In this document: piece after piece, positions 38,739 to 59,897 of the stretch
How positions within the stretch are numbered: the first letter of the stretch is position 1
Layout: the number at the start of each line of letters is the position of its first letter
Source of the DNA: Candidatus Omnitrophota bacterium
GTDB taxonomy: Bacteria > Omnitrophota > Omnitrophia > Omnitrophales > Aquincolibacteriaceae
Length of the DNA stretch: 64,000 nucleotides
Direction of reading: 5' to 3'
NCBI GenBank assembly: GCA_903856085.1
Contig: CAIOAT010000013.1
Span: 295,430-359,429, forward strand
Position numbers and translations under genes: made by a program
The notes under the pieces: model-generated
What the model saw: only the letters and a program-made list of their open reading frames with translations
What the model was told of the DNA's origin: nothing
Database searches by the model: none

Positions 38739-41700
38739 TTACGCGCTCTTCGCGGTCGCGAAATACTCGGCCTGCATCTGCTCGACAAACTTGCTCACGC
38801 CGAGGCCGGCGAGATTGAGGAAATTCCGGAACATCTTCTGATCGATCGTCACGATGTTTTCTTTCAGCTCTTCTGCCAGAAGTGCCGTCTGGGGATTATG
38901 CGCTCCCGCGAAAACCATGGCCTTCAGATTCCAGGAATCACGGATAGGTGCGGCTTCACGATCGGTTGCCAGAAGTTCTCTCGCTTCATCCAGATTGGCG
39001 GCCGACAGAATGGTGGGCCGATTCGCTTGACGAAGTTGCTGATTGATCTTTTCAAGAAAAACGCGATCGGTGGAACCTTTTTCAGACAAGACAACGACAG
39101 GAATAGCTCCGAATACATTCCGGATCACATAAATAAGGCCTCGCTTGAAGGCTGTTTCGGGATCAAGAACAAGCGCATCGCTCGCCTGGATCGTCTTGAC
39201 GCCCAGCGCACGATAAAGCATCTTGATCTTAAGCTTACTGAAGAAATTCTTCGGCTCACGGGTCAACGTGACCGGTTCTCCAGCATAAGCAGCCGGGATC
39301 AAATTCGACAAGATAATATCTTTTGCCTTGTTCGTATAAGCCAAGAGCGAAACGATGCCATCCGCAAGTTTTTCTGTAACACCCCGGATACCTTGTTCGC
39401 GTCCGCCACCCCTCCGGAAGTTATCCTCAAAAAAATCACGAAGCCCGGCTACCGGCGACGAGGGTTTCGTCTCTTCAGCCGATCTCAATTCAGAGCGTTT
39501 GTTCAGTTCCATAATACCCGCTTGCGGCGCGTTCATGAAATGCAAGATCTCATCCCGGACTCCAGGACGGCTCTCCAGAAGGTCCTGCACGGGCCCATAG
39601 AACTGTTTAAATTCATGCCCGGCCATCCCCAAATGCCAAACGCTTGGCGACTGGACCGCAACGTGCGCATAGGGCAGCTTGACGTAAGCAATGGCGTGGA
39701 TCACCTCGGGATCGATCACGATCGTATCCCCCGCCTGGACCTTCATCACATATTCTTTCGAATGCTGTGTTTTGATATAAAAACCCATAGCTCCGTCGGC
39801 GACGTAATACAATTCGATGGCCTGCGCGCGTTTCCCTTCATGCTCCAGGGAAGAGCGGTGGGAGTGCACTCGCTCCCTGTCGCCATAGAGTTTCTCATCG
39901 TAGCGTGACAGATCCCTCCCGGGAAAAGATCTTTCCTGGGGTGCGTCTTCCCGGATGAGAGATGCCCCGTTCCAAAGAAACTGGTCTTTCCCGTCTGCTT
40001 TCCTGAAATGAGTATAGGCGGAATTGGCCCACTGGGTCGGCATACGGGAACTCGCGTACATAAAATTCTGTTTATCGGAAAGGGCGATAACAAGCACTCC
40101 CAGTTCCTGGAGCTTTTCGTTTGAAACTACCGCGGAGCGATCCGGCCCCGGGTGCGGCAAAGCCCTGAAATCCTCGCTTCCAAAATCCTTGAACCACGGC
40201 GGTGCCTTCCGCATATGGATCATGAACTCGGCCCCGCTCAAATCCAGAAGATCCAGAGTCACTCCCGGCGCTAGGTCTTTTATTACGATCACGCCCCGCT
40301 CGTTGAGCTCAATGACCTCCCGGTAGTTTCCGTGATTGACCTTGATCTTGACGGCTCCTCCCTGGACGTTATAAATCTGGATCTCGCCCGCAAAACCTCC
40401 GGCGACCTCTCCAGCCGCGAGGGCGCGTAGATATTTTTCTATCTGAGGGCCGACGTAAAAACTCAGATCCGAATCGCCTTCAACCTTCTGTCCCATCTGA
40501 CCCATATCGATCGGTTGAGTGAGTAGCTGTCCATTCTGGAAACGGTAAAAGTTCCCTGTCTGATGCGGCACCAGGGGCTGTAATGCACCCAACTTGGAAT
40601 ATTCAAAACCATCCGCCTTGACGAACCTCTTGATCCCCGCGATCTTGGCGTAGATCATTTCGTCCGAAGACGGCACCGGCAGGATCTCGAAGAAATGGAA
40701 CTGCCCCGGCCTCAGGATCACATTCAACGGCTTCATTTCGTCGGGCGTTCTTATGAAGGTAAGATCGTTTTCATGGGGCCATTCAAGCGCTCCCTTCCAA
40801 AAGCGGGTGCCCCGGTCACGAAGAATGTAGAAGTTGGAGGAAAAATCTGCACCAAAATATTTCTTGAGATCCAAGGAGATCGCGGCCACACCGTCTTCGG
40901 TCCGGCCTTCGTGGGTGATCCCCAAGAACCATTTGCCGTCGTAAGAAGTCATGGAGGCGGCCACCGTGGCATTTTTAGCATTCCAATTTCGCACCTGGAG
41001 CGGCGTCACGGTACCTTCAAAAAATGCGCGGTGCGAAACGAGCTGATTCCGGAATCCTTGAGCAGGATGCACATTGATCATCCCTTCGGGTCGCTCACCG
41101 CGAAGGAGCTCTTCGATGGAAACCCCACGCGCTTCGGACCGCTGGAGCGGAATAGTCGCTTTAGGGACCCTCCGGACAGCGGTGAATGCGATGTCCTGAT
41201 AGCTGTTGATCTCAAAACCAGAGATCGTAATGGGGATCTGCTGGACGGGAACTTTACCGACGGCTCTATAAAAATCCGCGAACTCCTCGGCCGTCATGCG
41301 TCCCTGAACGGGATAGACCAGCGTCACGTGAAAAGGCCGTGGCGGATTACCAAGACCAAGATGTTTTGCGATCGTCCCTTGGACTACGGCCAATGGATCT
41401 TCTTTCCCGTCAGCTTTCCAGATCATGACCACGCCAAGATCCCGGTGCCAGTAGGGCCCGATCAATTTTCCGTGAACTTCGGAAACGGAAGAACTTCGAA
41501 ACGCCTGCCGCAAAGCTTCGGTTGTCTTACGAAGAAAACCATTGTCGACTTCCGCCGCCGTCACCCCATGCTTCAAGCCCTGCAAAGTCAGGTGAAGCTC
41601 ATCCTGAGGAACCGTCAGAACACGAGGTCCGAGCGCGCCCTGGATCTCGGCTTGGATCTGCGTCATTTTTTGGACCGCTGCTTCCTGGTCCTTCCCAAAG

Positions 41701-44700
41701 AAAACACAAGCTGAGGCTCCGCGAGCGGTCACGATCTTGCCGCCCTTGAAGTTTTCCGCGATCCTCGGTAATTCCACCGCCGGCTGATCGCTTTGTAATA
41801 GCGAATCCATTTGCGCCTGAGCTTCAGTCCAAAACGCGTTCGAGGGACTTTCTTTCAATAAGCCAACAACCTTCTTGGCGTTAGCACTGATTTTCTTGGC
41901 CCCAAGGGTCGTTTGGATCTCTTGGGTGTCCCTCATCTCAGAACGCTGCTCAGAGACAGAAAACTCTCCATCCCTAACTCCGCCCGCTTGTTGCGCCCAT
42001 ATCCTCTCGGTGTGAAAAGCCGCATCCTGCAAAGTAACATCGGACGGCAATAAGAAGACAGTCGCTCCAAACGCTCCTGTGAATTGAGGGTATTTTTCGC
42101 GCGGATCGATTTCCGCAACAAGCTCATAGACGCCTTTCTCACCAGCCTGCTGTAAAGGCTTAATAATCCCTTCCCCCGGGATCTCCTGATCATGCCACGG
42201 CGGAACCGAGGTCCCTTTGCCTCTCGGTCCAAAGTGGACGAAGAAACGAGCCCTCTGAAGAGCTTCGTGCTTCATCCGAACCAACAACTTCAGCTGAAAA
42301 CGTCCGGACGCCTGCGGCTCGATCCTTACGCCTTTTTCAGGAAATTCAATGGCTCCTGCCAATTCCGCTTTCGCAGCCCCCGGAAGCACCACGGTTTTCT
42401 TTTCTTTTTGAGAAGGAATTCCGACCGCGAAATAATGAAAGCCGTTCGCTTCCAACTCATAAGGATCGTAGAAATGACGTCCGTCCACAACATTGAAATG
42501 CTCTGTAACGGATTTTCCAGAGGCCTCGGTCATCCCTCCCTCAAAAAACAGTGTTCGCCAATCCGCGTATTCGGGCCATTCGGTCACCAAAATTTGGGCG
42601 TCACTACCGCGAATCGCCTCACGCGCATTTTCAGCTGCATTTGTTTTATGATCGAAAAATTCGACCCCTTTAAGGTCCATCGCCCTTTTTGAAAAATGGT
42701 TTCGCACACTCGAAGCTGTGGCAGGATGCGCGTCCGTGACCCGCACCTTGGCGCCCTGTGCTAGCAACGCTTCTATTAATTTCAGGGAGGGCGCATTTTC
42801 AATGGAAGAATTCGGCCCGGGCTTATAAGCAAGGCCCAGAAGTGTGACCGTTTTCCCGCTCAAATTGCCTCCGACCGCTTCGCGCGTCTTATCGACATAG
42901 AGTTTAACCGCTCGCTCATTGCTCTCAGCGAACGCGGTAACAAAAGGCACTCTTGTGTCTGTCCCGTTACTCCCGCTAAACCCATAATGGCGCTTTAGGA
43001 TCTCGATCTGTTCTCGATATTCCCGGAGTTTGTCCATAAGACCTTCGCTGTGACTCTCTGCGAATTTAGTAAATTTTTCAAGAGCGGCAAAAAGATCGAA
43101 TCCACCAAACCCGATCCCGGGCTTCAGGTAGAGGTCTCCCACGACAGGATCCGCGCCAAGGCCTTTGAGGATGTCGCGAATATCGCCTCCCGACCTTTCG
43201 GCCAGCTCCGCGAGCGAGATCATAAAAGCGATCCTTCCGGCGAGAAAAAATTCGATCGCTTTTTTCACGAATTCGTCCATTCCACGGGTCAGAGAAGTAC
43301 CGGTTTCCCCGACGAAAGGACTCGGCAGCGTTTCATGGCTGATACCAAAATATTGAAAACCAAAACCCGCAACCTCCGCGGGATCCCAGGCGTTGCGCCC
43401 GTCAAAAACAAGCGGCCTCTTCTCCCTGTCGGGGAACATCGTTTGAACCTTTTTAAAATTGAGCTGTCTGAACGCATCCCATTCAGTGACAAGCACGATC
43501 GCACTGGCCCCTTCCATCATGCTGTAAAGATCTTCCGGATTTTGAAAATACTGCACGGGCGCCGCAGTGCCGGTGCCCGGGGCCGGATTCAGATCCGCAA
43601 GGGTTTTTTGTAAAGAGGGGATCGCCACAGGATCATAAACCCGCACCTGAGCGCCCCATTCCACCAATTGACGGATGATCAAGATAGAACGCGCTTCCCG
43701 GTCGTCGCTGGTATTGGGTTTAAAAGCCGCGCCCAGCACAACGACGGTTTTGTCTTTCACCCCGTCGAGCTTTTGCTTGATCCCGTTCGCGAACATTTGC
43801 CACTGTGCTTCATTGACCGCAAAGGTATCCATCATGAGCCCGAAAGGCATACCGGCTTTCGCCAGCTGTCTCATGAAAGAAAGGGAATCTTTCGGAAAAC
43901 ACGACCCGCCCCATCCGATCCCGGCTGAGAGAAACATCGGTCGGATCCTGGGGTCCGCTCCGAGTTTTTCAGCGACCTTTTTGACATTGAATCCGAAAAG
44001 CGCAGCATACCAGCTCAGGTGATTGATGAATGAGATCTTCCAGGCCCGGTAACCATTGGCCGCATATTTGACGAGCATGGCGCTTTTGATCCCCATCTTG
44101 AAGATCGGGATGGGTTTCCCCGGGTATTGAGGATTGATATTTTTCGGATCGTAAAGCGCTGCCACCCGGTCGGCAATCGCCGGCTTCTCAGCGCCAACAG
44201 CCATGCGCCCGGAACCTCCGAGGGCATCCTCCACCTCCAACCCCTCGCGCAGGAATTCCGGGATCCAGGCAAATTCGATCTCGGCGCCTTGCGGAAGACC
44301 GACCTGGTGTATCCTGGCTTTCAGCCTGTCAATGGTCTCTGGCGGAGCCGTGCTCTTTCCGATAATGATCTTCTTCTCGCCGGGTTTCATCAGTCGGGCG
44401 ATATCAGCAACCGCATCTTCGAGGAAATGGGTGTCACTTTCCCCATTGGAAAGATAGGGCGTCGGCAGGGCCAGGTAGATGATCTCGCGGCCCTCGATCG
44501 CTCCAGCAAGATTCGTCGTGAATCGGAGACGTTTCGCCGCCAAGCCTGCTTGGAGGAATTCCTCAAGACCCGGCGCGTAATTGACCAGCTTTCCACCATT
44601 TAAGGATGCCACGCTCGCGGGCTTAATATCCACAGCGGTCACATCATGACCGAATCGGGCAGAAAGCATAGAAGCTTCCGTCGCACCCACAAACCCTGCG

Positions 44701-47700
44701 CCACCGATCACCGCGATCTTCTGAGCCTCGTGCTGTGGCCACGCCGCATTTAATGTTCCGGCGTCTGAGGTTCCTGTCCTCGCTTCAGATCGCATCCCCT
44801 GCGTCGCCCCCTCAGAAGAATTGACGCCCACCGGGACCATTTGAAGGACCTGAAAACGCCACCCCAGCTGAGCGATCCCCGCGGGATCTTTCCTCTTCAC
44901 CACTGAAATGCCGACTCTCCATCCTTCTTTTTGAATAGAAGATAATGTGTGTTTCTTTTCGTAATCGATTTGGAGCATATGATCCCGGGTCTGATACACC
45001 AGGCTGGACTCCAACCCGAGCAACGAAATGCTCCCGACCCCGAACCACACTTTTCCTTCCTCTTTATTATAAGGAACCTTCGAGAAATGGATGGGAACCA
45101 CAACATGACGCTTGTGCTCGAATCCGTCCTTTTCTTCCTTCAATACTCGCGCAAGAACCACGGCCGTATCCCGGCTCGAATCGAGAAAAAAGACCTCTCC
45201 TCTTTCGAAAAGATCTTTCGTCTCAGGACTCTGCATCATGTTTTTTAATGCCCCGTAAACTTCCGCATCCCACTCTTTCATGTCCTCAAGAAGTTCGGGC
45301 ACAAGCGTCGCGATAAAGGCCATCACGGGACGAACGCCCTCCACCCCGAAAATAGCGTGGGCTTTGTCCCTGCCGATACCGGAAACCGTCTGAAGAAGCA
45401 TTTTCAGGTCTTCGGGCTTAGTCCCCTGGATCATTCGCTTTAGCCAATAAGTCCTAGGCTTTTGCTGCCGCAACTGCTCTCCAGAATTTCCGGAAACAAG
45501 AGAGCGCAGATCGTCCAGGATCAGAGATCCTCGCTGTTCTCTTTTCTTTTCCGGCTTCATGACCCCCGCGGCCTGCAATTCAAGGATTTGAAAATCGGGA
45601 ACTCCGATCGGTAAAGCCCCCTCCATTAACACCGAAAGAGGATAAGGCTTCCTCTCCTCGCCCGCCCCGTAAACTTCCCCCGTGATCGTATTTACAATGT
45701 GATAAGTCATGGCAGCTTCTGGATCGAGCATGTCCGTGAGCCATTGAAACGCTTTGTTTCCGTAAAACTGTCCCCAGGCCTTCGATTCTCCTCCGTCGAT
45801 GGCAGGATATTTTTGCTCTCCCAGATTAAGTCCTATGATGTATTTCTTATCGCCGACCTGAACGCCAAACCCTACAAGCTTTTTGTTCAAGGAACCGAAC
45901 CTCTTTCCCTTGGATTCCAGCAGGAAATAGAGGTTCTGCCGGAAAAGCTCATCCCTAAAAAGCCTTTCGTATTCTTTGCTGCGCGACTGAATGTAACCCT
46001 GCAAGACGGTCTCGGAGAGTTGGACCACAAAACGATCAAAAAGCCGGAGCGCCGCCAGATGAATCCGGACTTTTTCTAAAAGATCGTTCGTTTTGTCAGC
46101 CTCCGCCTTGAGCCGCATCATTTCCTGATAAAAATCGGGAGCTTCCTTTTCGAATCCTTCGAAATAATAAAGGATCTTTGCGAAGATCTCGCCCCTCGCC
46201 GCGTGATACGCGATCGACTTGTAGCTCTCGACGCCATGCGTCCGTACTTGCCGGGCGCTTTCAACAAACGTCAGGACTCCGGGAGGAGCGATCTCCAGAG
46301 CATTCGAAGGCTCACTCCTCCAGACAAATCCTCCGTCATTCCCGGATTTTTTTGAAAGAAATCTCAAAGCGCTTTCGGCAGAAAGTCCCGGCTTTGCCAA
46401 CAGAGCTTTTTGTTTCTCGGATTTCTGAACGACCCTCTGCCAAAGCTTGATATGCGCCCTTGCCTGACTTTTTTCCATATCGACCAGAGGCGAGGACCGG
46501 AGCGCTTCCCACTGAAGATTCATTCTGTCGCCAGAGACCGCGTATGCCTTTTGAAGGGCGATAAGGTCCTCGATCATGGATTCCGCGAGTGGATAAGGGG
46601 CGTTGACGACCTTGATATTCCCGTTGTCGTCGAGAGTGCTTAAGATGAACTTGCCGTCGCCATCCTTGCTGTAAAACACCAGAAAACCATTCGTGATCTT
46701 CCACTTTTTTGATTTGAGATTCTCAACCACCTGTTCGTAAGTGATCTTATCTCTAAAAATATCCTTTTCGAGCCCAGTCTCATTATCCACGATGGTGAAA
46801 AGTTCCGGCTGCGCGCCTCCCCAGGCCCCCATCAAAATGGCCCCGTTCGGCAGACCTTTCATCATACTGGTCGCGGAAGCCTCAAGGATCATGTAGGTGA
46901 TCATGACGGTTCCGGAAACGCCCTGGAAAATAATGGGCGCGTCTTTAATATTGTAGTTCTCGATGGTCGCGAATTTATCTTCGAGTTTAAGTTCCCGGAT
47001 AAGACGCTGGATCTCCAAGAAGAGCCCGTGCGCCTCATCATCGAATTCCCGGCCGCCGATTATGGCGCGCGCCGCCGTCTTTTTATACTGTTCGAGTTTG
47101 GCAGGATCTGCCGCTAGCGACCGGAGAATCTCAAGCCATTTGTCCGGCCCCTTGTAAGAAACCTGTCTGCGCACATTCGAAACGATTGCTGTTAAAAGGA
47201 ATTGCTTCCTGAGCGCCTGGGCCTTGGGATCCTTAAAGATCTGTTGCCATTCACTCTCATCTTCCAACGCCTTTTGGATCCGGGCTTGAAGATCTGCCAC
47301 AACCTGAGGCCCATCCACTTCCGTGATACCGAATTCTTCCTGATACGACTTCATCGCCTGATCGAACCATTCGGGTTTGTTCTGGCTTGCCTTGAGCCAT
47401 AGCATCAGCCGCCCCGCAAGGTAGGACTTGATCATGTCCGTTCTTTCCTTGAATTCCCCCAGGAAAGCCTCATTCCCCGGATGGCCAATCTTGATGAAGA
47501 AATCCCGGTCATCCGATTCAGAAGACATCCCGAGTTTCGCTTTGTAAGTATTGATCAATTGACGCAAAAACGGCGCCTGCCATTGTTCGAGCAGTACCCC
47601 GTTGGTGCTCCGCAGCCCACCCTGGTTGAAGCTATCGATCACATCGACATACCCCGGCATCACGCCTCCGGACACCGCGGGCGTATGCTCGTACAACGCA

Positions 47701-50700
47701 ACACCGGTCACGAGATCGTAAGAAATTCCCACCGCATCCACGATGCTGATCGTTCCATTCCTGATAATGCGCGACCGCATCGCCTGGGGATACCCCAAGA
47801 GTTGAAATGAGGCTTCAGCCGGCCGGTAGATGGTCGGCGAATACACAGAATGATTCATGTGGTGATGAGGCGCATCCGGAAAAAGAGGCGTCGGGATACT
47901 GGCGAAGACCTCGTTATCCACAAAGAGAATTTTCTTTTTAGCGATGCCCTTTTCCTGGAGTTTTAGCGTAAGGAGTTCTTTGGTTTTCCCATAAACTGCC
48001 AGATGCAGATCACGCCAAAGATTGGGACCGCCATCACGAGTATCCGGATAAACTTCATCAAAGATTTGGACCTTTGTCCCATCATCGGCAATATAAAAAG
48101 CCTCGATATAAAAATTCGGCATCCCGCCGGAAAATGTGTTTGTCGGATAAACCTTAACTTTGATCTCGCGATCCACCGCTTCTCGGGCTTGCTGGAGCCG
48201 TTTCTTATACAGCGGGTCCCCTGCGCGTCCGATCCATTCCTCAGCTTTGGCGCGGTATTCATTGCCAGCATCGAGAAAAATACTAAAACTCAATCCAGGA
48301 TCTTCGGTCAAAACCTCGCGAAGATAATCCCCCAGCGTCTTCTTACCGCTCGTCACTTCCTCCGGAAGATCTTTGGCGAATTCCTGTCCCTTGATCCGGT
48401 CATAGATCACATTCACGGCAAAAGCGTCGATGTTCGCTTTCTTGGGCTGGCCAAAATTCTTTTGCCACGAAGGAAAAAGATCATGCATCAGAGCTCCTAA
48501 TCCCCCCGTCACGGTTGTTGCTGCGACCAAGCCCGCAATCGTTTTGCCATATTTTTCTTCAAGCTTCTTTAGGATTTCACGATCCAACCCCGCCTCGAGT
48601 TGCCCAGTAACAACGGTATAATCCTCTAGCTCGGGAGCATTTTTCTCGGCCCAGGAACGCAATTCGGCGCGCTTGGAATTTGCTTTTTGAGCCACGCGAA
48701 CCATGGCTTGCGCGATTTCAAGACCATTTCCCACAGCCCCGCCTTCGATCACAGGCAAAACATTCTCGGACACATATCCGGCAGATCCGAGAGCATAAAG
48801 AAGCAATTGACCGCTCTCCTCCGCAGCCTGAACTCCCCTCGAGATACTGCGCGGCATGTTGCTTATAAATGCCGCAAGTTCTGAAATCGTCGGAAGATAA
48901 TGAGGCATGAAAACCGCTGCGATCGCAGCAGGATCCGCCGCCCGAGCTTCGGAACGAAGGGCAGCAAGAGGAATGCCATTTAAATGGAACGCGTTAAAGC
49001 GGGCTGTTTCATATAATTTTTTAAACTCCGGAACCAACTCGTCCCAGTCGCGGACAGAATTCATCCCGCGTGCTCGCATATCATAAAAGGCTTGGGGATC
49101 GTTCATGTAGACCGCAACAGCTCGCTCAGTAGCCTCATCAAAAAGCTTCATGACTGCTTCAAAGGACGGGGTTTTCTCAAGATCTTTGATCTTGTTCAAT
49201 CCTGGAAAATAGAACTTGAAGCCTGTGGCCATCGCCGCGTCTTCCTTGGGGTCCAGGACCGTATTATCAAGCCCGCCCACCGCATGCACGATCGGGATTC
49301 CGCCATACCGGAGGGCCTGCATTTGGCCAAGTCCGCAGGGTTCAAATTTTGAGGGCATAAGAAAAAAATCTTCCGCGGCATGTGCCTTCCGAACGAGCGT
49401 TTCACTGAAGGCGGGCGTGAAATAGGCGCGCCCCGGGAATTGCGCCATTAAGGCCCTGAAACCCTCCGCGTAGTGATTTTCCTCCCCGATCACGGCGATT
49501 TGAGCATTCGGATGCCGATTCAAGAGCCGGCGTGCTTCTTCAAGGATCAGCTCCGGACCCTTTTGATCCGCAAGTCGCGTAGCCGCCACAAAAAGCATGG
49601 CGTTCGGGTTTTGCTGGAGGCCGACTTCTTTTTGAAACTCTAATTTATTCGCACGCTTGCCTTCGGCTACGTTTTCAGACGTGTATTTTTGATAGATTTT
49701 GTTATCCTTCGATGGATTCCAAACACCGCTATCCACTCCGTTCAAGATCCCCGTGAAATCATCTTTCCGTTCGAGAAAAACGCCTTGCAGACCCGTGTCG
49801 GGATCCGCAAGAAGTTCTTCGCGATATTTCGGGCTCACCGTCATGAATTTTTCCGAAAAAACAAGCCCGGCCTTCATCAGATTGAGCCCGCCATGGAATT
49901 CGAGATACTTCCACCCAAACGCCCATTCGGGCATCCCCATGGACATAAGAAGCTGTTTGCCGTAATTAAAAAGATCCGGACCATAACGCTGTTGATACGC
50001 CGCATCAGCATTATGGATCGTCATCGTGATCCCGGAGGTCTGGAATTCACTGGGGAAAGCGGCTCGGATAAAAGCCGCGACAAGTCCCGGATGCGCGTCG
50101 TGTAGATGAATGATGTCGGGTTTCTTGACAGCGAATTTTTTACGAAGGATCTCCACGGCGGCACGAGAAAAAACCGCGTATTCCCGGAGCCCGTCGAGAC
50201 TTCCGGAACTCCAGTAGCCTTTTTGAAAATAACCGTCTTTCTTGATGAAATAATACCGGACACTGTGCGCAACTGCGGTATAAACCTCAAAAGTTTCCTC
50301 GCGCCCTTCGATGGGGATCTTCACAGTAAACCCAGCATTTTCAACTTTGAAAGTTTTCTGGGTAAAAACCGAGGGGTGGCCCGGCATGATCACAAATTGA
50401 TGAGCCCCTAAATGTTTTAAAAGCGCCGGCGGTTTTTCCCGAACGACATCTTTCACTCCCCCTTTGCCAAAAAAATCCGCCGATTCCATCGCGATATGAA
50501 CCACATCGTGGACCGGCATAGTCATGGCTTCATCGTTTCGCACCTCACTCCGGACTTTTCGGCTCGTAGGGGGCGCAGAACGAAACGCCGCAGGCAATAT
50601 GTTTATATGAAGCTGCTGCCCTAAAAATAACGGGTTAAAGTTTCCGGCAAGTTCCGCCGCCACACTCAGCGCAGCCTTTTGAAAACTTTGGGGAGACACA

Positions 50701-53700
50701 GCCATAAGGGTAAATGAAGGTCCCGTAGCATTCCAAACAGGCAACCCCAAGACCGCAAACCCTGCTCCGCTGAAAGCAAGGATCGCTTCCTTTTCGAACT
50801 GAAGGTGGGAATATGAGCGATTAGCCCTCTTCTCGGAGCGAAATCCCCCGGAAAATGCGGGCTTTCTCACGCGAGAAGAAGTGAAGTGGGCCTGACCGAG
50901 AGAGTCCACGCCGGTGAGCCGGAGGGTGAACTCTAAATCTTCGCCTGTTGTCCCGCTCGGAATTTTCGATTTGAATTCAAAACCGACATCGCGCCACTTC
51001 AAATCAACAGAGGGCATAGAAGCGCCCCGGGAGGGGTCATAAAGGGTCGAGGAAACCTCAAATTGGGCCTGACTTCCTTGGCTTTCACTCTGACGCAGTT
51101 TTGTTTCGGCTAAACGGATCGTGATGCCCGGAAAAATTTCCGCCGTTTTCCCGGAGCTCAGCGTAACCAGATGTTCAATTTTGCTGAAATCGAATGGATC
51201 TTTGATTGACTCAACAAGCGTTCTGTTTTCAGCTGTCGGCTGACCTTCATCCCGTATTTCGGAACGAATAAATTTTGCGGTCGAACCCTGCGGCAATGTC
51301 ACAGTGGGAATTTCATCCAGCGGACGCGGTTGAATGCTGAGAGGAACCTGGATGTTTTCCTTAAACTCTGTTTGCAAGATCCTTTCCACCACCGGGATTG
51401 CGCGAAGGATTCCGTCCTGAATTTTGTCACGCCCAAGGCCATCATAAAACCAATCCAAAATGGGAGCCGGCGCTCTTTTTTGACCTTCCTTATAATGAGG
51501 GTCTGTTTCGTTTAAAATAGCAACAATCACTGCGTCTGATATCTGACCTGTGGTGTTTAATTTTGACTGGATAAGCGCCACGGCTTTGGCTTTATCAATC
51601 TTCAACCGGTCTCTCATATTCATAGCAGAGTAAAAAACATCCCCGGCAAACTCTCTTCCGAGGAGCTTCCAAAGAACCACTCGCTCAAAACCTGTCGCGT
51701 TGCTTAGAAGATACCGTTTGGGACTTTGCGGATCTCCCCATCTTCCGTTGTAATCACCCCAAAAAGCATTCACGAGCGCCTGCAGGGACTGTCCATACTT
51801 GAGCTCCTTGGGCGGCTGAGGAAGGCTTCCCATTTTTATATTTTGCATCCACTGAGGAGCGACATACATCTTATCGGGTGTCTGTTTCAACAAGCCTTCA
51901 GCCCGGATTTTCTCAATGGCCTGCACCGCCAACTTCCGCGTATCCGGCCAGGTCCTATTCAATTCGGCCAAAGCAACGGCCACTGCTTGGGCGGCTTTTG
52001 CCCTTATTTCTTCCATCCTTTTTATAGAAGCGGCATCCTCCGCCGCGCCGGCGAAACGGATCGGCTTCCCAACCATCCGGCTCGCATTCATATAAAATCT
52101 TTCGGCCGACAAGGCTCCGTCAAAACGAATTTCGACATAAGGCTCGCTGCCACCCCCATAGGACTCCACAGTCCCGATTCTTCCGGCCCGCTCCACGCGC
52201 ACTCCTGCCATTCCTTTAACGCCTTTGAGATTCAGGGGCACCTCTTCCCCTCCCCGCATCTCGGCACGGATTTCGCCAACAGCGCTTGGCTCCGACGTTG
52301 CAAAAGAAACCATCAAAATATCGCCACGCGTCAATTGAGTCCCGCTCTCGCCGAGCACTTGAATTTTCCTGATTTTAGAAGAATTAAATTTCCCAATCTC
52401 CCTGATGGCTTGCGGCATTGAAATATCTTCCTTGATAAGAAATTCGCCCGGAGCCAGCTCCTTGATCAAAGAACTTAGACCCGCGTTTCCTCCTTCTAAC
52501 TCACTGGCTATTGCATCCAACCGCCGCATTAGCCCCAATGTCAAAGCGCGATAGGGAGCCAGTATCTCAATGACCGAATTGACGGTTCCGATCACTTGCA
52601 ACAGATCCGCCGGGAAATAGGTCAAGGCTTGGGTTAACACACCCAGAACTTCGTGCTTGTCGTTGGGATTGAGCGAATAATTTGAATCAATTTCTGTGCG
52701 GATAGCCTTAAGCTCCGCAATCATTTCTCCCATGCGAGCTTCGGTGATTTGAGGAGCCTGCTTGCCCGCCCGCACCTCGGAGCGGACTGCTTTACCCGGG
52801 GATTTCTGTGACAGTGCCACCGATGGGATCTCGTCCATCGGGCGGGGTTTGAGCGTGATCCCGATCTCAAGCCCCTTTTGGACTTCCGCCTGGAGGATTC
52901 TTTCCACCACGGGGATGGCGCGAAGAACCGCTGATTGGACATCGAACCCGCCCTCATTCCATCTTGCAACGGCCACCGGAGCTTTGGAATTTCCGGGCCT
53001 TGCTTCTCCCCATATTTCCTCAATGGTTTTATCGGAGATACGCCCGTATTTCAATTTAGACCTTATCTGCCAAGCTGTTTTCCCTTTTTCATCCTTAAGC
53101 CTTTCCCGAAGATTGAACGCGGAAAAGAAAACATCTCCGGCCAGCTCATGCCCCAAGATCTTCCAAAGCACGAAACGCTCCACGCCTGTCGCATTGCTAA
53201 AAAGATACCGCTCTTTCGCCCTTCCGTTATAAGCTCCCCAAAAAGCCTCCACCAAGCCTTGCAGGTCTTGGGCATACTCGGCGTCCGTCATTTTACGATC
53301 TTCTTCCTCTTCGCCGAGATTCTTGGGAGGCATTGCCGAACTGCTTGCAATGGCGATTTTTTTCATCCAACGGGAATGAACATACATCCGGTCGGCGGAT
53401 TGGTTCACAAGACTTTCTTTTTTAATGAGCGCGATGGCTCCTTTTGCCAGACCCGTTGTTTTAGTCCAGGTCTTCGCCAATTCACTGGCAGCTTTTTGCG
53501 CTTCAGCTTCCGCAGCCTTTCGCGATCCCAGCTCTTCCACCTCCGAGGCAAAAAGAAGGGGTTTTCCCACCGAGGCGCTGCCTCGTAAATAAAACGGTTG
53601 GATATCACTCTCTCCGTCGAAAAGGATCTCCAAAAACGGTTCTTTTCCACCGCCATAACCCTTTACGGTTCCAACCTTTCCGCCCCGTGTCACGCGGACA

Positions 53701-56700
53701 TTCATCTTCCCTTTGATTCCCTCTAAGTTCAGTGGTACCTCGCCCATGTTTCTCACCTCCGAGCGCGGGAAGAAGAGGATCGTCACCACGGAGCCAAGGA
53801 TTTGGTCCCGGCTCCAGGATTCCATGGAAAAAGATTGGCTCCTTTTCAAACCCGCAGGATCTATATGAAGGGCTTGGTCGCCGCGCTGTGCGTCCATATC
53901 CATCAGGCCCTCATGAGCTCTAAATTGACGGATCAGCGTATCAATGAAGAGCTGCCAGGCCACCTTCGGATCCCCCGGCAGGCTCCCGTCCCCCGCAGGG
54001 ATCTCCACGGCCAGGGCATCGGCTCCCTGAAATTCCGCGGCCCGTTCGGATAAATGAACCACGGCTTTGTGATTGCGCAGAAAGTCCGGAAGCACTGATT
54101 TTCCGACCCCTTCAAGACCTTTTAAAAAATCCGCTTCGTTAAAATTGGATGCAAGCATGATTTCATCGGGAAGCTCTCCCGGGCCAACCGGGCCAACCCC
54201 CGCAACAAACGCGGCAACGCCAATGCGGTGGGTTAGGGTGTGTACCATGGGACCGATGTCTTCATCTTCAGCCTTAGAAAAAAAGTTTTGAAGAAGCTTA
54301 TCCAGCGCTCCCTGGAACAGAAGGGTCTGAGGTTCTTTTGTTTTTTGAAAGGTCTCTAAAGCCTGGGTGATAGGAGCGGCTACGGCGCCAACCGCGGATA
54401 AAACGAGGTCATTCCGACCGCCCTTGTACACGTCTTCGAGGATCTTGTTAAGCATTTTGCGGACCATTCGGAAATTTTCCGCATTAATCTGGCTCTGCTG
54501 TCCCCGGATCGCTTCGATCACTTCCCTTATCTGCCCGACAGCCTTATCCCGCGCTTCAGCGCGGGGCGCCAAAAACAGATTGGTTTGGATGTTGGGGCCA
54601 AGCCAGCGATAAACGCCCTCCGGCAACCGGTCCTTTGATTCCATAAGAGCACGCGAAGGATCATCCGTGGCAGCCGGAACCAAGAGAAATATTCCTTCGT
54701 AGTCTTTCCAGTTGTAATAAGGCGTCGTAAAAGCGGAGCCTAGAAGTTTCACCTGGTTGGCCGGAAGGCCGTAGCTCTGCATAGAGGCTTCTGAAAAGGT
54801 CCAAGATTCTTTTTGTTTCGAATTCCCCCAGCGCAGATAAACTCTGAAATTCCCGGCGTTAAGGAATGCGTCGCGTGCTGCCGAATCCGGGAATTCCAAG
54901 GTCGAAGAAAAATCAGCCCGGTCCCCGTGGATCTCCACCTTGCCATCCTTCGAGCTCATGACCGGCAGAATTGGATTTGAACGCACTTCGGCGCGGGGCG
55001 AACCGGCCGCGGGAGCTGCGTGTCCTACTGGCCGCATAGCCAACGAGGGACTTTCGGGTGTCATTCTTGCCAACACCCGATAGGCTTGCTCGGTCTCATT
55101 ACTTTTCTGATCTTGAAGAAAGGGCGTTAACCGGATAAATTTACCGAGCCCCAATTCATCAAAACTCCCGGTCGCAAACCTGACGCTTTTTTCTACGATC
55201 CGGATCGAGTTATCTTCACGCTTGCGAAGAATCGCAACGATCGGGAATTCGCCCTGATACGCTTGCAAAACCTTTGGTGTTGCATCCTGCGCGCCTTGAA
55301 CGGAGAGTTCGGTTTTTTCAAGCCCTGCTCGGAAAGAAACCCGCCCCTCGGATCCCACCACGCGATATTCCAGCGAATGGTCAGGATGTAGGACAAATCC
55401 CCAAAAGTTTGGATCTGCAGGCAAGGTTCCATCAAAACTGATAACGCCCAAGTATTGATCATCCGCCGGCAGGATCTTCACGCCGCCATAGGTCGCATCA
55501 ATCTCTTCGCCCAATGTTTTAAAAAATACGTCGACTCTTGCCGCGCGCAGTTCGGGGCGAAACAAACCCGAGGGTTGAGGCTGAGATTGCCGCGGGGAAA
55601 CGCCAACGGCAGAAGCAATGATTTTTTTGAAGCCCGCATCAAACTCCGCCCTATTCTCCGCGCTGCGATCGTGGTAAGAAGCAACGGTCTCGCGCACAAT
55701 ATCGCGAATCCTGGCAAAACGGACCGCAAGTTCGCGACGCCAAAAACGCGGCGACACGGCGCTAAAAAAAGAGACCTGCTGGGTGACTTTTTCAGGAGCG
55801 ATATGAGAACGCGTAATCGCGTTGGAGCCAAGAAGCGCTGTCAGATAATTTTTGTTGGAATCGGCTGTGATCTCGCCGATGGAAGGCATGATGCCGATAT
55901 AAGAACTGCCGGAGGCTGTGATCGCCTGTTTAAAACCCTCGGTGTGAAAACCACCGGTGATGATGACCGCTTTCGTCTGCTTGCGCTCCTTCATCACTTC
56001 GCGCGCCCTCTTCATCATAAAATCTTCACGCTCGATGGCGCCGGAGTAAAAATTCAAAGCTTGCTCGTTAAGTTGCTGTAAGGCGGGCAGCGTGTCGCGT
56101 ACGGCGCTCTCTTTGCCCCGCACCCGATCAAGCGCTTGCATTAACTCGGAAGGAGAAATTTGACGTGACAGAACTTGCTGATATTCTCCGCGAGAAAGCT
56201 CCAAATGAAACAGCTTTTTAAGGAGTTGGTATTCGCGAAGCGAGCGCACAAGCGTTTTTTCCTCATCAGTTTTTACAAGGACTTCGACCAAGGACGCAGT
56301 AAGCTTTTTAATCTCGGACTGAAGCACCTCGCTCTGGAGTTCGCTTATAAGGATCATTTGCTGGATGCGAAGGCGGAGGTTCGGGTAAGCATTAAAAGAA
56401 AAGTCGGCTGGTAACGCATCCATCAGACGCTCGAAAACGAAGCGGGTCTTGTAGAGCGGCAAACCGCCTTTTTTCGCCATTTCGAACATCGCATTCATTT
56501 CATCTCCAAGCTTCTTTTCACCGTACTCCGTACTCTGTACTCCGTACTTAGCGATATCGCGTAGAAACGTTGCTTTCTCCGCTTCAACTTTTGAGAGATC
56601 AATCTTCCCATCCAACGATCTCAGCCGGAAATAGCGGACCAGGGTCGGCCACGCAAGCTGCGCCTTAACATCTGTAAGATCATTTCGTAGGATCGTATTC

Positions 56701-57425
56701 GAAGATTTCTTGAGTGTTTCCAGCCAGCTTTCAAGCGGGACGGTCCCCTCATCGAATGCAGCGTAACGGGTTATGAGTTCGCGAAGCTCAGGGTTCAGCC
56801 GAAGGCTTGCCTCTTTTTGCCACTCAAGATAAACACCTTTCAAAAACAGATCGGAGGCTCCTCGCCCTTCATAAACTTTCCTATAGGATTCACGATCCTT
56901 GGCGTATGCCGCAGCGTTTTCAATACCGTACGCCTCTGCTTGTACAGCGTCTTTCGTACCCCGTACTCCGTACGGCAACTGATCGATCATGAACACTTCT
57001 GCGCCGGTAAGTTCCCCGGCCTGCATGAGTTTTTCGTTCACTGAATGCTGAAGTTGGGCGTTCTTAGGAAAGAATCTGAAAGGTTCGGGCGTAAGTTTAT
57101 TGCCGGCGCCTTCTAAAAGGACAAGCTGGATGCCGTAATTTTTGGATAAATACTGAAGGATATTCTGGATATTCTTCTGGGCATCGTAGTTCGCATGAGC
57201 TTCCTGGATATGAATAAGGAGAGATCCTCCTTCAGAGCTCTTGATGCTGTCCGTGATCTTGCCGAACTCCGCTGGAATTTTAAATGAGTTTTCGGAAAAA
57301 AACTTCGGGAAGTTTTCGACGGTTTGGCCATAGGCGACAGGAGCAGGCGTAAGCGTGTTGGTCACGAAGAAAGTGACAACAATAACGCCCGCAAATAATC
57401 TCTGTAACCGCTTGAGACAGTTCAT
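38739..57425 (-). CDS. Giant 6228-aa multi-enzyme protein: signal peptide + TraB/GumN-like domain + duplicated unknown modules + glycogen synthase + alpha-glucan phosphorylase + UDP-glucose dehydrogenase + degenerate UGDH-like domain + 2H phosphoesterase + cupin, joined by recurrent RSE[VA]R linkers
   Basis: Uninterrupted 18,687-nt ORF with an ATG at 57423-57425. Domain calls rest on motifs read directly in the translation (see sub-features). Antisense ORFs across it are short and carry no motifs. Confidence 0.85.
   Translation of the reverse strand: [6228 protein letters not shown]
39621..39908 (-). other. Cupin domain with a His/Glu metal site (sugar-phosphate isomerase-like), aa ~5840-5935
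   Basis: [25 protein letters not shown] (HxH…E motif 1) and [18 protein letters not shown] (P…H motif 2). Confidence 0.45.
41226..41723 (-). other. 2H phosphoesterase (LigT/ThpR-like) domain, aa ~5235-5400
   Basis: Two H-x-T-x motifs in hydrophobic context ~88 aa apart ([10 protein letters not shown] and [10 protein letters not shown]), the hallmark of the 2H superfamily. Confidence 0.55.
42546..43328 (-). other. Second, degenerate UGDH-like domain lacking the catalytic cysteine, aa ~4700-4960
   Basis: [14 protein letters not shown] aligns to the [13 protein letters not shown] block but with Cys-to-Phe/Asp substitutions, followed by a UGDH C-terminal-like [20 protein letters not shown]. Confidence 0.5.
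43626..44720 (-). other. UDP-glucose/GDP-mannose 6-dehydrogenase domain, aa ~4236-4600
   Basis: [16 protein letters not shown] NAD-binding motif, catalytic [13 protein letters not shown] (Cys present), and C-terminal UDP-binding [18 protein letters not shown]. Confidence 0.75.
46746..48623 (-). other. Alpha-glucan (glycogen/maltodextrin) phosphorylase GT35-like domain, aa ~2935-3560 (may extend further C-terminal)
   Basis: [29 protein letters not shown] resembles the PLP-lysine block EASGTSxMKxxxNG of GT35 phosphorylases. An upstream Gly-rich [10 protein letters not shown] fits the N-terminal glucan phosphorylase region. Confidence 0.5.
48966..50522 (-). other. glgA: Glycogen/starch synthase (GT5, GlgA-like) domain, aa ~2302-2820
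   Basis: N-terminal [24 protein letters not shown] (compare GlgA …E.APF.KTGGL.DVV) and C-terminal [28 protein letters not shown] (GlgA EPCGL motif). Confidence 0.7.
51267..52253 (-). repeat. Internal protein module copy 2 (aa 1725-2053), paralogous to copy 1
   Basis: [45 protein letters not shown]…MYVAPQWM…[38 protein letters not shown]…[12 protein letters not shown]…[11 protein letters not shown]. Collinear with copy 1 at roughly 45-50% identity by eye. Confidence 0.7.
52785..53750 (-). repeat. Internal protein module copy 1 (aa 1226-1547, unknown function)
   Basis: [44 protein letters not shown]…MYVHSRWM…[38 protein letters not shown]…[12 protein letters not shown]…[11 protein letters not shown]. 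Confidence 0.7.
55566..57248 (-). other. N-terminal TraB/GumN/Tiki-superfamily-like domain (paralogous to the 733-aa neighbour)
   Basis: Shared blocks with the 57696..59897 protein: [16 protein letters not shown] / IQIQDVHAHATAQQNI, LLEGAG / [17 protein letters not shown] / VTGGFHTDGL. These resemble the GxxH…E…GxGH pattern of the TraB/GumN family (assignment inferred). Confidence 0.4.
57327..57425 (-). other. Predicted Sec signal peptide / N-terminal membrane anchor of the giant protein
   Basis: [34 protein letters not shown]: basic n-region, hydrophobic core, AxG-type cleavage context. Confidence 0.55.
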
Positions 57426-57695: not shown

Positions 57696-59897
57696 ATGAA
57701 CAAGGTGCCCGTGAAAAAGCTACTCGCTGTCTTTCTTTTCCTGATCCTTCCGCTTACTTCGGCTCCGGTCGACTTGAGATCTGAAACGTCGGGACCCCAC
57801 TCGGAGGCATCTCTCCCTTTATCCAGCCTGGCGGTCCCTGAAGAGATTGGAAAAGTCCAGGAGCGCTTCGCTGGAAGCGGCTCAAGAATCATCATCCAGA
57901 TCCAGGATGTCCACGCACACGCCACCGCCCAACAAAACATCGCCGCTATGTTGGAGCATCTCCGCTCAGTGTTCGGTGTTCAGACCGTCGCGCTGGAAGG
58001 CGCCTGGGCCGCCACTTCCCTTTCTAAAAGCCATGCTATCCCGACCTCGCGTGAAAAACAGCTTCTCGCCAGAACCCTGCTTGAAGATGACAGAATCTCC
58101 GGGCCGGTTTATGCCGCGATCATGTCCTCGGAGCCGATGACACTTATTGGGATTGAAGATAACGTCCTTTACGAAAAAAACCGCGCTATTTTCCTCACAC
58201 ACCTCGTCAAGAATCGTGAGATCCAGGAAAAACTCCGGGCTTATAGCAAGACCCTTGAAGAATCTCAGCAATCGCTCTGGGGACCGAACCTTTTGACCTT
58301 TGGGAACGCTTTCGGAAAATTCCGCGAGGTTGAAGACCTTGGAAAATTTTTCCCTGTCCTCCTGAAAGCTGACGAAACCCAAAACGCTGAGATCTCGGAT
58401 CTCCCTCAGATCTCGCTCTTAAGAGACATCCTCGCCCTGGAAAAGACCTTTTCGAAGGAGAGACTGGAGCAGGAGGTCAAGCTCGTGATGCGAGAATATA
58501 AGGACACTCCCTTGACCTTGGAAGAATTGATCCGTGGCGGCAAGATCCCGGCTGAAAAAATAGGGTCTTACCCTGAGATCAAAAAACTGACTCATCTCTA
58601 TCAAATGCGCGATCAAATTTCCATTCGGGACTTAACGGCCCAGATCGAGACTTTGACCGGTCGTATCCTCGAAAAACTTCTTAAAACGCCGGAAGAAAAC
58701 GCGTTGTGGAAAAAAACCGAGCGGTTTTATCTCGCCCGGCGCATCCTTCTTTTACAAGCGACTCCCTCGGATATAACGGCCTATGAGAATGAAAAACTTT
58801 TGATCGAGCCCGAACTCGCCGAAGCCGGTCTTTCGGAAAGCCTGTCCTTGTCGCTTGATTTTTATGAGGCGGTCAAAAAACGCGATGAGATCTTCTTCGA
58901 TAAAATCATGAACGATCCGGCGCTGGCCGGCAATGTCGCAGTGGTAACAGGCGGATTCCACACGGATGGCCTTTCGCAAAAATTCCGCGACGCAGGGATT
59001 TCCTACATCACAGTCACGCCAGAACTCAGCAATACTTCTGCGAATGAAAAACTCTATGAAACCAGGATGGCGGATGACGCAGAGAGGATGGCAACAAATT
59101 CAAAGACGTCGCCTGAGATCCAACATCCAACACCCTCGGCTCACAGCGTCACACTATCCGAACTTCGAAACTCTATCGCTTGGGTCGATGACAGGTTCCC
59201 GGAAAGTTTTAAGGTGCTGCTACAAACCAAGGATGTCCGGAAAGCGGTCGCGGCTTTTCTGGGTGAGCCGGTTACGGTATCAAGATCCGCCAGGATTTCT
59301 CAGCTTTCGCGCGAAGGAAGGGTCATCCCGGAGTTAAGAACAGGGACCGCGATCAATGCCTCCGAGTTGCGGATCAGTGAATTTATGGCAAAGCCCCGTT
59401 TGGAACAGCTAAAAATTGTGCGGGGCTGGCAAACGCAAGGACCGGACCGACACGAAAAAGCAATGCTGGTCTCTTCGGTCAGCGTCCTTACGAGAATGCT
59501 TTCGCAGGAAAATGTCGTGAAACTTCTGAAGGAGGCCGTGGCGGGCGGTGATATCGTAGCGTTGGCTCAGGATGTCCCTGCAACACAAATGCCGGAGATC
59601 TTGCTATCCACCCGCGGAGTCGATCGCTTTGAGACGCCGGACATCGCGTCTCTGATCGAAAGAACGCCGCGTTTCGGACGTCTTGCCAAAAAACACCCCT
59701 TCGCGATCATGGAGAACGGACGTCAGGGCGGGGCTTATGTTGTGTTGCCGGAAAAACCAATCTCGCTTGTTCTTTTTCGCATCATCACGCTGAATCCCAG
59801 CCTTTACCAAGCCGCCAAAGATTCGGCGTTCCTAACTCTTCTGGAAGATCTCGTCTCTGAAATCTTGGCGCGGGAACTTCCACAGAAATCCGTTTAA
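57696..59897 (+). CDS. Secreted TraB/GumN-like protein, stand-alone paralog of the giant protein N-terminal domain
   Basis: 733 aa. Signal peptide MNKVPVKKLLAVFLFLILPLTSAP, then blocks collinear with giant-protein residues ~60-620 (QIQDVHAHA…LEGAWA…GGFHTDG). Confidence 0.75.
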   Translation: MNKVPVKKLLAVFLFLILPLTSAPVDLRSETSGPHSEASLPLSSLAVPEEIGKVQERFAGSGSRIIIQIQDVHAHATAQQNIAAMLEHLRSVFGVQTVALEGAWAATSLSKSHAIPTSREKQLLARTLLEDDRISGPVYAAIMSSEPMTLIGIEDNVLYEKNRAIFLTHLVKNREIQEKLRAYSKTLEESQQSLWGPNLLTFGNAFGKFREVEDLGKFFPVLLKADETQNAEISDLPQISLLRDILALEKTFSKERLEQEVKLVMREYKDTPLTLEELIRGGKIPAEKIGSYPEIKKLTHLYQMRDQISIRDLTAQIETLTGRILEKLLKTPEENALWKKTERFYLARRILLLQATPSDITAYENEKLLIEPELAEAGLSESLSLSLDFYEAVKKRDEIFFDKIMNDPALAGNVAVVTGGFHTDGLSQKFRDAGISYITVTPELSNTSANEKLYETRMADDAERMATNSKTSPEIQHPTPSAHSVTLSELRNSIAWVDDRFPESFKVLLQTKDVRKAVAAFLGEPVTVSRSARISQLSREGRVIPELRTGTAINASELRISEFMAKPRLEQLKIVRGWQTQGPDRHEKAMLVSSVSVLTRMLSQENVVKLLKEAVAGGDIVALAQDVPATQMPEILLSTRGVDRFETPDIASLIERTPRFGRLAKKHPFAIMENGRQGGAYVVLPEKPISLVLFRIITLNPSLYQAAKDSAFLTLLEDLVSEILARELPQKSV

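Follow-up and report, generated by a model that had tools for sequence, protein, structure and literature searches.

A single open reading frame (ORF) of 18.7 kb, at 38739..57425 (-) of a 64,000-nucleotide stretch of Candidatus Omnitrophota DNA (the window), encodes a giant protein of 6228 amino acids (aa). We propose that this protein is an exported polyprotein in which a signal peptide and a TIKI-like domain are followed by 12 or more cargo modules and a conserved C-terminal module. The junctions between modules are marked by a strict pentapeptide, R-[S/A]-E-[V/A/L/M/I/T/S]-R, which may serve as a processing site cut by the TIKI-like domain in cis or by a paralogue of it; our confidence in this assignment is evenly divided. 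A 2184-aa fragment from an ENA metagenome assembly (P0001) is 100% identical to the giant protein.

The pentapeptide and the modules it separates

The original prediction, made from the letters of the window alone, listed eleven such pentapeptides, and all of them are present at the protein and nucleotide coordinates given for them. The regular expression used there picks up two more, RAEAR (aa 955) and RAELR (aa 2919), which brings the number of canonical sites to 13. The same protein contains two near-misses, RPELR (aa 623) and RSEKR (aa 2196). The excess had been called far beyond chance, and 20,000 shuffles of the residues bear this out, as the 13 observed sites compare with a shuffle mean of 0.087 and a maximum of 2 (Poisson P ~2e-24). 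Chance, compositional bias, or duplication of one linker might be argued from the two duplicated modules and from the richness of the protein in R, E, and A; this explanation is refuted by the count itself, by the unrelated flanks of the 13 sites, and by more than 1,200 non-redundant recurrences in hundreds of relatives, which leaves it with virtually no probability. None of the other real ORFs of the 64-kb window contains the motif.

It is the peptide that is conserved. The sites use every one of the six Arg codons, five or more Ser codons, the two Glu codons, and any aliphatic codon, and the 15 nucleotides are not conserved. Given this synonymous variation, selection acts on the peptide rather than on the DNA. 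No motif conservation is visible in the other five reading frames. A feature of the nucleic acid or of recombination (a scar left by cassette exchange, an internal signal for ribosome binding or translation start, or a site of RNA processing) would be in line with the exchange of motif-ended cassettes between paralogues described below, but with conservation confined to the amino-acid frame this explanation is effectively refuted and we regard it as extremely improbable.

The features discussed here are located as follows, in the order of the giant protein:

38739..57425 (-): giant ORF, 6228 aa
57327..57425 (-): signal peptide, aa 1-33, predicted from a hydropathy scan and the N-termini of relatives
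55821..57293 (-): TIKI/TraB/ChaN/RRSP-like N-terminal hydrolase domain (N-domain), aa ~45-535, with a helical insertion of ~300 aa
55545..55559 (-): RPELR, aa 623, a degenerate site at which the first canonical motif of close relatives falls
54981..54995 (-): RAEVR motif, aa 811
54549..54563 (-): RAEAR motif, aa 955, overlooked in the original prediction
53751..53765 (-): RSEVR motif, aa 1221, opening duplicated module A
52770..52784 (-): RSEVR motif, aa 1548
52254..52268 (-): RAEMR motif, aa 1720, opening duplicated module B
51252..51266 (-): RSEIR motif, aa 2054
50826..50840 (-): RSEKR, aa 2196, a near-miss, as Lys is not among the residues favoured by the family at the variable position
50538..50552 (-): RSEVR motif, aa 2292, 11 residues ahead of GlgA
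48996..50507 (-): GlgA module, a complete glycogen synthase of the ADP-glucose type, aa 2307-2810 (TIGR02095, PF08323, PF00534)
48942..48956 (-): RSEAR motif, aa 2824, 14 residues past GlgA
48657..48671 (-): RAELR motif, aa 2919, likewise overlooked before, opening the phosphorylase-like cassette
44793..48656 (-): alpha-glucan-phosphorylase-like cassette, aa 2924-4211, a weak family assignment (sub-threshold PF00343 and TIGR02094)
44778..44792 (-): RSEAR motif, aa 4212, 20 residues ahead of UGDH
43392..44720 (-): complete UDP-glucose 6-dehydrogenase (UGDH) module, aa 4236-4678 (TIGR03026)
42423-43271 (-): partial second UGDH-like copy, aa ~4719-5001, an internal repeat
41931..41945 (-): RSEMR motif, aa 5161
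41142-41930 (-): module with a weak 2H match, aa 5166-5428
41127..41141 (-): RSEAR motif, aa 5429
39483..39497 (-): RSELR motif, aa 5977, ahead of the C-terminal module, in a stretch with a predicted local distance difference test score (pLDDT) <50
38742..39482 (-): conserved C-terminal module, aa 5982-6228, with a predicted Rossmann-like alpha/beta core and the end ...AKSA-COOH
57696..59897 (+): gene of a divergent 733-aa paralogue, matched by the N-domain profile (hmmsearch E = 6e-72)

The complete enzymes of the cargo define where the motif lies relative to a module. The TIGR02095 match of GlgA (345.4 bits against a cutoff of 328.45; profile positions 2-476 of 477) is framed by two motifs, starting 11 residues after that at aa 2292 and ending 14 residues before that at aa 2824. 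When 114 stand-alone GlgAs are aligned to this module, their residue 1 falls ~10 residues past the motif and their last residue ~13 before the next one. A homologue search with the GlgA module returned such ordinary stand-alone GlgAs, not other giant architectures. Similarly, the UGDH match to TIGR03026 (399.1 bits against a cutoff of 189.8; profile positions 2-413 of 413) starts 20 residues after the motif at aa 4212, and this module keeps the catalytic Cys4509 within GGSCFPKD. The original prediction had placed these two motifs ahead of GlgA and UGDH and those at aa 1221 and 1720 ahead of the copies of a duplicated module, which are 46% identical over 352 aa, and all of these placements are correct. 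The distance of 5-10 residues before a domain that it gave is roughly right, but slightly short for both GlgA and UGDH.

The duplicated module spans ~330 aa (aa 1221-1547 and 1720-2053; 50553-53765 (-)), each copy being followed by an unrelated smaller module; its cassette is single in the relative P0002. The second UGDH-like copy comprises the central and C-terminal domains, is 27% identical to the first, and is not separated from it by a canonical motif. Further along the chain, aa 5166-5428 contain two H-x-T-L motifs (HLTL and HVTL) and match a LigT/2H-phosphoesterase model of Pfam weakly (E = 4e-4), and aa 5434-5976 give a weak cupin match. Pfam annotated little in three motif-rich relatives.

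Relatives of the giant protein exchange modules at the same sites. Among family members, 46% of BLAST blocks start within 20 aa of a motif, compared to 8% for random positions. A binary profile of BLAST coverage around the motifs is flat, because close homologues align straight through the junctions. Residues 1221-1552 of the giant protein correspond to 785-1114 of P0002 (motifs at 785 and 1110), residues 2919-4216 to 802-2090 of P0007 (motifs at 802 and 2086), and residues 5977-6227 to 3657-3902 of P0003 (motif at 3657); both partners have a motif at each end of an exchanged cassette. Blocks shared with P0007, P0009, P0013, and P0043 begin at aa 2919 of the giant protein and end, like they start, at motifs of the partners, and site 2919 is therefore the true start of the ~1,290-aa phosphorylase-like cassette, which is common to 7 relatives. 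The module at aa 623-810 (54996-55559 (-)) recurs deep in P0015 (aa 2291-2445, 43% identity) as a relocated cassette. Twelve close relatives terminate in the ~245-aa C-terminal module, which in every case lies 5-51 residues behind a motif, and the model of its fold is generic Rossmann-like.

Family distribution and anatomy of the site

When aa 1-2300 of the giant protein were used as query, 105 proteins of 1,300-4,000 aa were recovered, which have only the first ~550 residues in common with the query. The named hits are mostly labelled Candidatus Omnitrophota/Omnitrophica, and a few Auribacterota or Elusimicrobia. Their cargo includes UGDH, phosphoenolpyruvate-utilising enzymes, phosphoglucomutase, GAPDH plus PGK, NDK, phosphorylase, response regulators, methyltransferases, and others. 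The motif is present in 60 of the 105, with up to 12 copies per protein and 293 sites in total; in P0004, an RSEVR at aa 620 aligns with the degenerate RPELR of the giant protein. A profile of the N-domain, searched against 1.84 billion representatives, matched 10,283 clusters (7,205 at E up to 1e-30) in proteins of up to 7,376 aa, and the domain always started at about residue 25-45. In 128 independent representatives we counted 609 sites over 330,906 aa; 98 of the 128 have at least one site, the maximum in one protein is 28, and the median spacing between sites is 235 aa.

The motif is confined to this family. A scan of one genome per species yielded at least 417 loci, 80 of which were kept for statistics; most of these are labelled as metagenome-assembled genomes (MAGs) of Omnitrophota/Omnitrophica and the rest as 'uncultured bacterium'. 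Each genome contains 3-5 paralogues, often in tandem. Across the 80 loci, ORFs with an N-domain carry 1.88 motifs per 1000 aa versus 0.05 in 502 other ORFs, and most of the eight stray sites in the latter lie within probable fragments of family genes. A comparable density in unrelated proteins would, according to the original prediction, have counted against a dedicated signal; the density in unrelated ORFs is ~37-fold lower. Within family proteins the motif is rare in the N-domain itself (0.08 per 1000 aa versus 1.85 across the rest of the protein), and the first site comes just behind this domain, at a median of aa 648 and within aa 500-800 in 80% of the proteins. No site was found in 120 stand-alone GlgAs. 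De novo counting of k-mers in a motif-bearing control clade returned RSE.R as by far the top word, and the presence of the motif tracks the clades of the N-domain tree.

Nearly all complete family proteins of the 80 loci (L001-L080) end in an amphipathic helix followed by [K/R/Q/S/A/V]-[S/A]-[A/V]-COOH, which corresponds to 38742-38800 (-) in the giant protein. The variants KAA, RSA, KSA, KSV, ASA, SAA, and VAA occur in polyproteins and ~730-aa paralogues alike. This tail resembles the first half of the motif and could act in sorting, secretion, or protease docking.

Across a pool of 1,201 non-redundant sites, the consensus is R-[S 81%/A 19%]-E-[V, A, L, M, T, I, S]-R. Relaxed variants with Lys for Arg, Asp for Glu, Q, or T/G at position 2 are not enriched, so that the site is strict over its five residues, as is typical of sites cut by proteases. 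Preferences extend from -2 to +5: positions -1 and -2 favour Ala, Ser, and Pro and avoid Asp and Glu, and position +5 favours Thr, Asn, Ser, Glu, and Ala and is depleted in Arg and large hydrophobic residues. At +5, Pro occurs 3.4-fold less often than expected (18 observed versus 60 expected), in spite of its enrichment at -1 and -2; this depletion directly after the second Arg hints, weakly, at a cut of the type R|X. Position +6 is enriched in Asp and positions +7 to +10 in Glu, and the flanks outside these preferred positions are unconserved. As the original prediction had noted, the motif is not of the furin/kexin type (R-x-[K/R]-R or K-R before the cut), given its R-x-E-x-R pattern with obligatory Glu and the lack of enrichment of Lys. 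Phosphorylation of the Ser is unlikely because Ala replaces it at about 20% of the sites. The 'R[STN]E[LV]R' or 'RSELR' string of PL7 alginate lyases is a coincidence of letters, as Pfam detects no PL7 domain and the motif described here lies in disordered linkers.

The linker context is apparent from several lines of evidence. Windows of linker-like composition hold 12 of the 13 sites of the giant protein, and in an alignment of thirteen C-terminal regions the motif is the sole invariant feature of a stretch rich in insertions and deletions. Modelling with AlphaFold2, which the original prediction had suggested for this purpose, places the motif of the C-terminal region in coil with pLDDT <50, followed by a domain at 80-90. 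In P0039, three pairs of sites overlap with a common middle Arg: RSEARAEIR (aa 1272-1280), RSETRAEAR (aa 1518-1526), and RSEARAEVR (aa 1704-1712).

Proposed export, the N-terminal domain, and its paralogue

Every family member starts with a signal peptide followed by the same N-domain of ~490 aa. In the giant protein, the predicted signal peptide has a K/R-rich n-region, a hydrophobic segment at aa 10-28, and a c-region ending in AYG (AxA in relatives). This segment is the only strongly hydrophobic, transmembrane-like one, and a hydropathy scan of the whole protein detected no other transmembrane segment. Cysteines have been purged from the family: they make up 4 of 6228 residues (0.06%) in the giant protein, 0.14% in family ORFs, and 0.084% in the 128 representatives, compared to 1.0-1.15% in neighbouring genes, which is an 8- to 15-fold depletion. 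Stand-alone GlgAs have a median of 5 Cys and the GlgA module of the giant protein has 1. One of the four remaining Cys is located in the signal peptide (aa 3) and two occupy conserved or catalytic positions (EPCG of GlgA and GGSCFPKD of UGDH), which argues that the module enzymes are functional. Together, signal peptide and Cys purge support export of the protein.

The N-domain is invariant at H77, E105/G106, G167/E169, Y174, Y460, R466, G491-G-F-H494, and P514. Its candidate catalytic set, E/D75-x-H77, E105, R466, and H494, is invariant or nearly so in 26-94 sequences. The corresponding residues of RRSP (E3900-x-H3902, E3930, R4001, and H4030) are essential for endopeptidase activity, and the spacings agree closely, being 28 and 28 in the N-domain and 28 and 29 in RRSP (PMC6254334). 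The structural model of the N-domain (pLDDT 87.8) has an alpha/beta fold with a core of parallel beta-sheet as in ChaN, Ere, TraB, and RRSP, and this core is divided by a helical insertion of ~300 aa. Superfamily members listed for the domain comprise ChaN, two Bacillus Ere-type proteins, HopBA1, a TraB-family protein, RRSP, and EreC. At the sequence level, no Pfam or NCBIfam model reaches its threshold and no Pfam model matches at E up to 0.01; the best sub-threshold match is PF04187 (Tiki superfamily, ChaN; E = 0.045, 14 bits versus a cutoff of 27.7), and searches of the PDB produced no sequence match to superfamily members. Since no curated sequence model matches it, we identify the N-domain as a new, insertion-bearing family in the TIKI/TraB/ChaN/Ere superfamily. 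It differs from known members, such as the Wnt protease Tiki1, the Ras/Rap1 endopeptidase RRSP, EreA/B, and ChaN, by the ~300-aa insertion and by its fusion to kilobases of cargo. Judged from its residues, the domain is probably an active hydrolase, and it is a candidate for a peptidase that recognises the motif.

A second such domain is encoded next to the giant ORF. The divergent 733-aa paralogue consists of a signal peptide, a TIKI-like domain with intact catalytic set, and a tail of ~270 aa, and contains neither the motif nor a single Cys. The same head-to-head arrangement of paralogue and polyprotein genes exists at at least 13 loci from other MAGs, with a gap of ~15-400 bp in most of them. 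The paralogue is thus a candidate for a trans-acting partner or protease.

Processing or docking, and relation to known systems

We propose that the giant ORF gives rise to one Sec-targeted precursor, in which a signal peptide and a TIKI/RRSP-like hydrolase domain would precede a string of autonomous enzyme modules and the C-terminal module. The modules (GlgA, the phosphorylase-like unit, UGDH, and several unknown units) would be joined by disordered linkers of ~25-40 residues, each with a motif. After export, cleavage at each motif or right next to it, perhaps behind its second Arg, would free the modules as separate proteins. The likeliest protease would be the TIKI-like domain at the N-terminus of the precursor, working in cis, or else the stand-alone paralogue of the divergent neighbouring gene.

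The original prediction had offered a protease-processing site and a docking or recognition peptide side by side. That the motif is a selected signal placed at boundaries stands; of the two functions, processing fits better, and docking is retained as its rival. We favour processing because the site is strict, ~7 residues long, and located in disordered linkers, because enzymes are framed by it on both sides, because exchanged cassettes end in it, and because a hydrolase of the TIKI/RRSP superfamily is present in cis. Alternatively, the motif could remain uncut and be bound by a chaperone, a secretion or translocation factor, a scaffold, or the N- or C-terminal module, so that the protein would act as an intact, membrane-tethered multi-enzyme assembly. 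Its length of 5-7 residues, disordered context, and unconserved flanks are hallmarks of short linear motifs, overlapping double sites such as RSEARAEIR would suit avidity, and multi-enzyme giants of Omnitrophota have been described without invoking cleavage (bioRxiv 10.64898/2026.06.07.730766). However, a docking peptide would not need to sit once per junction at the boundaries of complete enzymes and shuffled cassettes, nor would it require a first site directly behind a hydrolase domain, depletion of Pro right after the second Arg, or the constant presence in cis of a hydrolase from a protease-containing superfamily. We therefore consider docking possible, but rather unlikely.

Several points weigh against processing by the N-domain. 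The cut, its scissile bond, the enzyme that makes it, and its cellular location are what we infer from the observations above, and a short linear motif in a linker could equally be explained as a binding site. About 40% of the sampled N-domain clades, including the hits named Auribacterota or Elusimicrobia, are without RSExR, and a search for gapped 5-mers revealed no comparable recurrent motif in these clades, while it recovered RSE.R in the control clade. The catalytic set is equally conserved in motif-less clades, and no residue of note in the N-domain separates them from motif-bearing ones; the domain therefore need not be an RSExR-specific protease. The TIKI superfamily also includes esterases (Ere) and haem binders (ChaN), not proteases alone. 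Finally, export of enzymes that depend on NAD and nucleotide sugars is puzzling and hard to rationalise. The motif-less clades (P0035-P0104; clusters 1, 2, 5, 6, and 9) still carry multi-enzyme cargo.

The conservation of the catalytic set in motif-less clades, without residues linked to specificity, would also suit a cleavage site that is served by a separate trans-acting enzyme, for example a serine protease of the periplasm with specificity for Arg or Glu, or one of the S8 subtilisin/kexin type. The N-domain would in that case serve a different purpose, for instance by anchoring, by acting as an esterase, or by maturing some other bond. Other giant proteins of Omnitrophota are reported to contain peptidase domains of the S8 and C39 types (bioRxiv 10.1101/2023.11.21.568195). 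Against this explanation, the motif is practically limited to proteins with an N-domain, as the few sites in other ORFs fall mostly into family fragments, and besides the TIKI-like paralogue no protease gene is conserved beside the locus; an M24 aminopeptidase ~4 kb away looks like a housekeeping enzyme. We judge a protease of this kind to be unlikely, less likely than docking and much less likely than a cut by the TIKI-like domain or its paralogue.

The proposed organisation has counterparts in two known systems. In MARTX toxins, a protease domain within the chain cuts the linkers between modules and thereby releases them. MARTX toxins and the family described here are alike giant secreted bacterial proteins whose conserved N- and C-terminal regions frame variable, independent modules, and the MARTX effector RRSP has the TIKI fold and the set of two His, two Glu, and one Arg found in the N-domain. 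In contrast to MARTX, the candidate protease is TIKI-like and N-terminal, a Sec signal peptide takes the place of type I secretion, and the cargo consists of central-carbon and glycogen enzymes in Omnitrophota rather than cytotoxic effectors. In addition, the cut in MARTX linkers follows a Leu and involves no strict pentapeptide. Pfam and NCBIfam models detected neither RTX/GD-rich repeats nor a C80 cysteine protease domain in the giant protein (only GT5/GT1, UGDH, and a weak phosphorylase), which rules out membership of the MARTX family. In viral polyproteins, such as those processed by picornavirus 3C, potyvirus NIa/TEV, or flavivirus NS3, one ORF yields several mature proteins through a strict junction site of 5-7 residues, repeated in exposed linkers, and an in-chain protease. 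The -2 to +5 footprint of the giant protein is of comparable length, and autonomous modules separated by linkers with a recurrent junction site, as expected of a polyprotein, are present here. The differences are that the family is cellular and bacterial, with several paralogues per genome, a protease candidate of another fold class, metabolic cargo, and processing that is so far a proposal.

Giant proteins of Omnitrophota have been described before as 'Archaeovorins' or 'multi-enzyme metabolic cluster' proteins with sugar-metabolism, GT5, PGM, response-regulator, and methyltransferase domains, and most of the giants have a signal peptide or transmembrane helices (bioRxiv 10.1101/2023.11.21.568195; bioRxiv 10.64898/2026.06.07.730766). 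The 2026 preprint lists the 'multi-enzyme metabolic cluster' as a class with signal peptides (bioRxiv 10.64898/2026.06.07.730766). West-Roberts et al. suspected cleavage and state that, for want of known cleavage points, they could not analyse it further (bioRxiv 10.1101/2023.11.21.568195). The family described here differs in that its members are mostly 1.5-7 kaa long, not >30 kaa, and the published proteases are C39 and S8. In text searches, 'linker' and 'polyprotein' occurred in neither of the two papers and 'motif' and 'cleav' were absent from the 2026 preprint; neither the TIKI-like N-domain nor the Cys purge nor the C-terminal signature did we find mentioned in these papers. Our literature searches found no paper pairing Omnitrophota with 'polyprotein' and no description of the motif, whose strings appeared in unrelated work only.

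Taken further, the family may represent an undescribed, phylum-wide maturation system, in which thousands of exported, Cys-purged precursors would be cut at R-S/A-E-x-R by their own TIKI-fold endopeptidase and their enzymes released outside the cytoplasm; we put this forward tentatively, with less confidence than the assignment of the site itself. The glycogen, sugar-nucleotide, glycolytic, and signalling enzymes could be released in the periplasm, or else inside or on a host or prey cell, a suggestion that we hold just as cautiously. If true, this system would parallel viral polyprotein expression in a cellular setting and MARTX effector delivery in a metabolic one, and it would supply the missing cleavage code for the giant proteins of Omnitrophota. 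Regarding the question of whether these giants act as one chain or in pieces, a searchable junction motif now provides a concrete and testable hypothesis. The motif also offers a practical means to split the ORFs into units for structure prediction and annotation, and the N-domain defines a large, uncharacterised family of about 10,000 clusters at 50% identity with a new domain of the TIKI superfamily. Should processing be real, bacteria would employ a polyprotein strategy for ordinary metabolic enzymes, which bears on stoichiometric co-expression and on what host-dependent nanobacteria export. A new pair of sequence-specific protease and site could, in addition, become a useful tool.

Other neighbours of the giant ORF look like housekeeping genes and encode the M24 peptidase, a PIG-L protein, a menaquinone-biosynthesis (VitK2_biosynth) protein, GGT, and an ABC transporter. 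Elsewhere, family genes form tandem arrays on the same strand (L007, L016, L017, L020, L035, L044, and L046/L059), in which a large, motif-rich ORF with the C-terminal signature of the family is followed, a few hundred bp after its end, by the next family gene.

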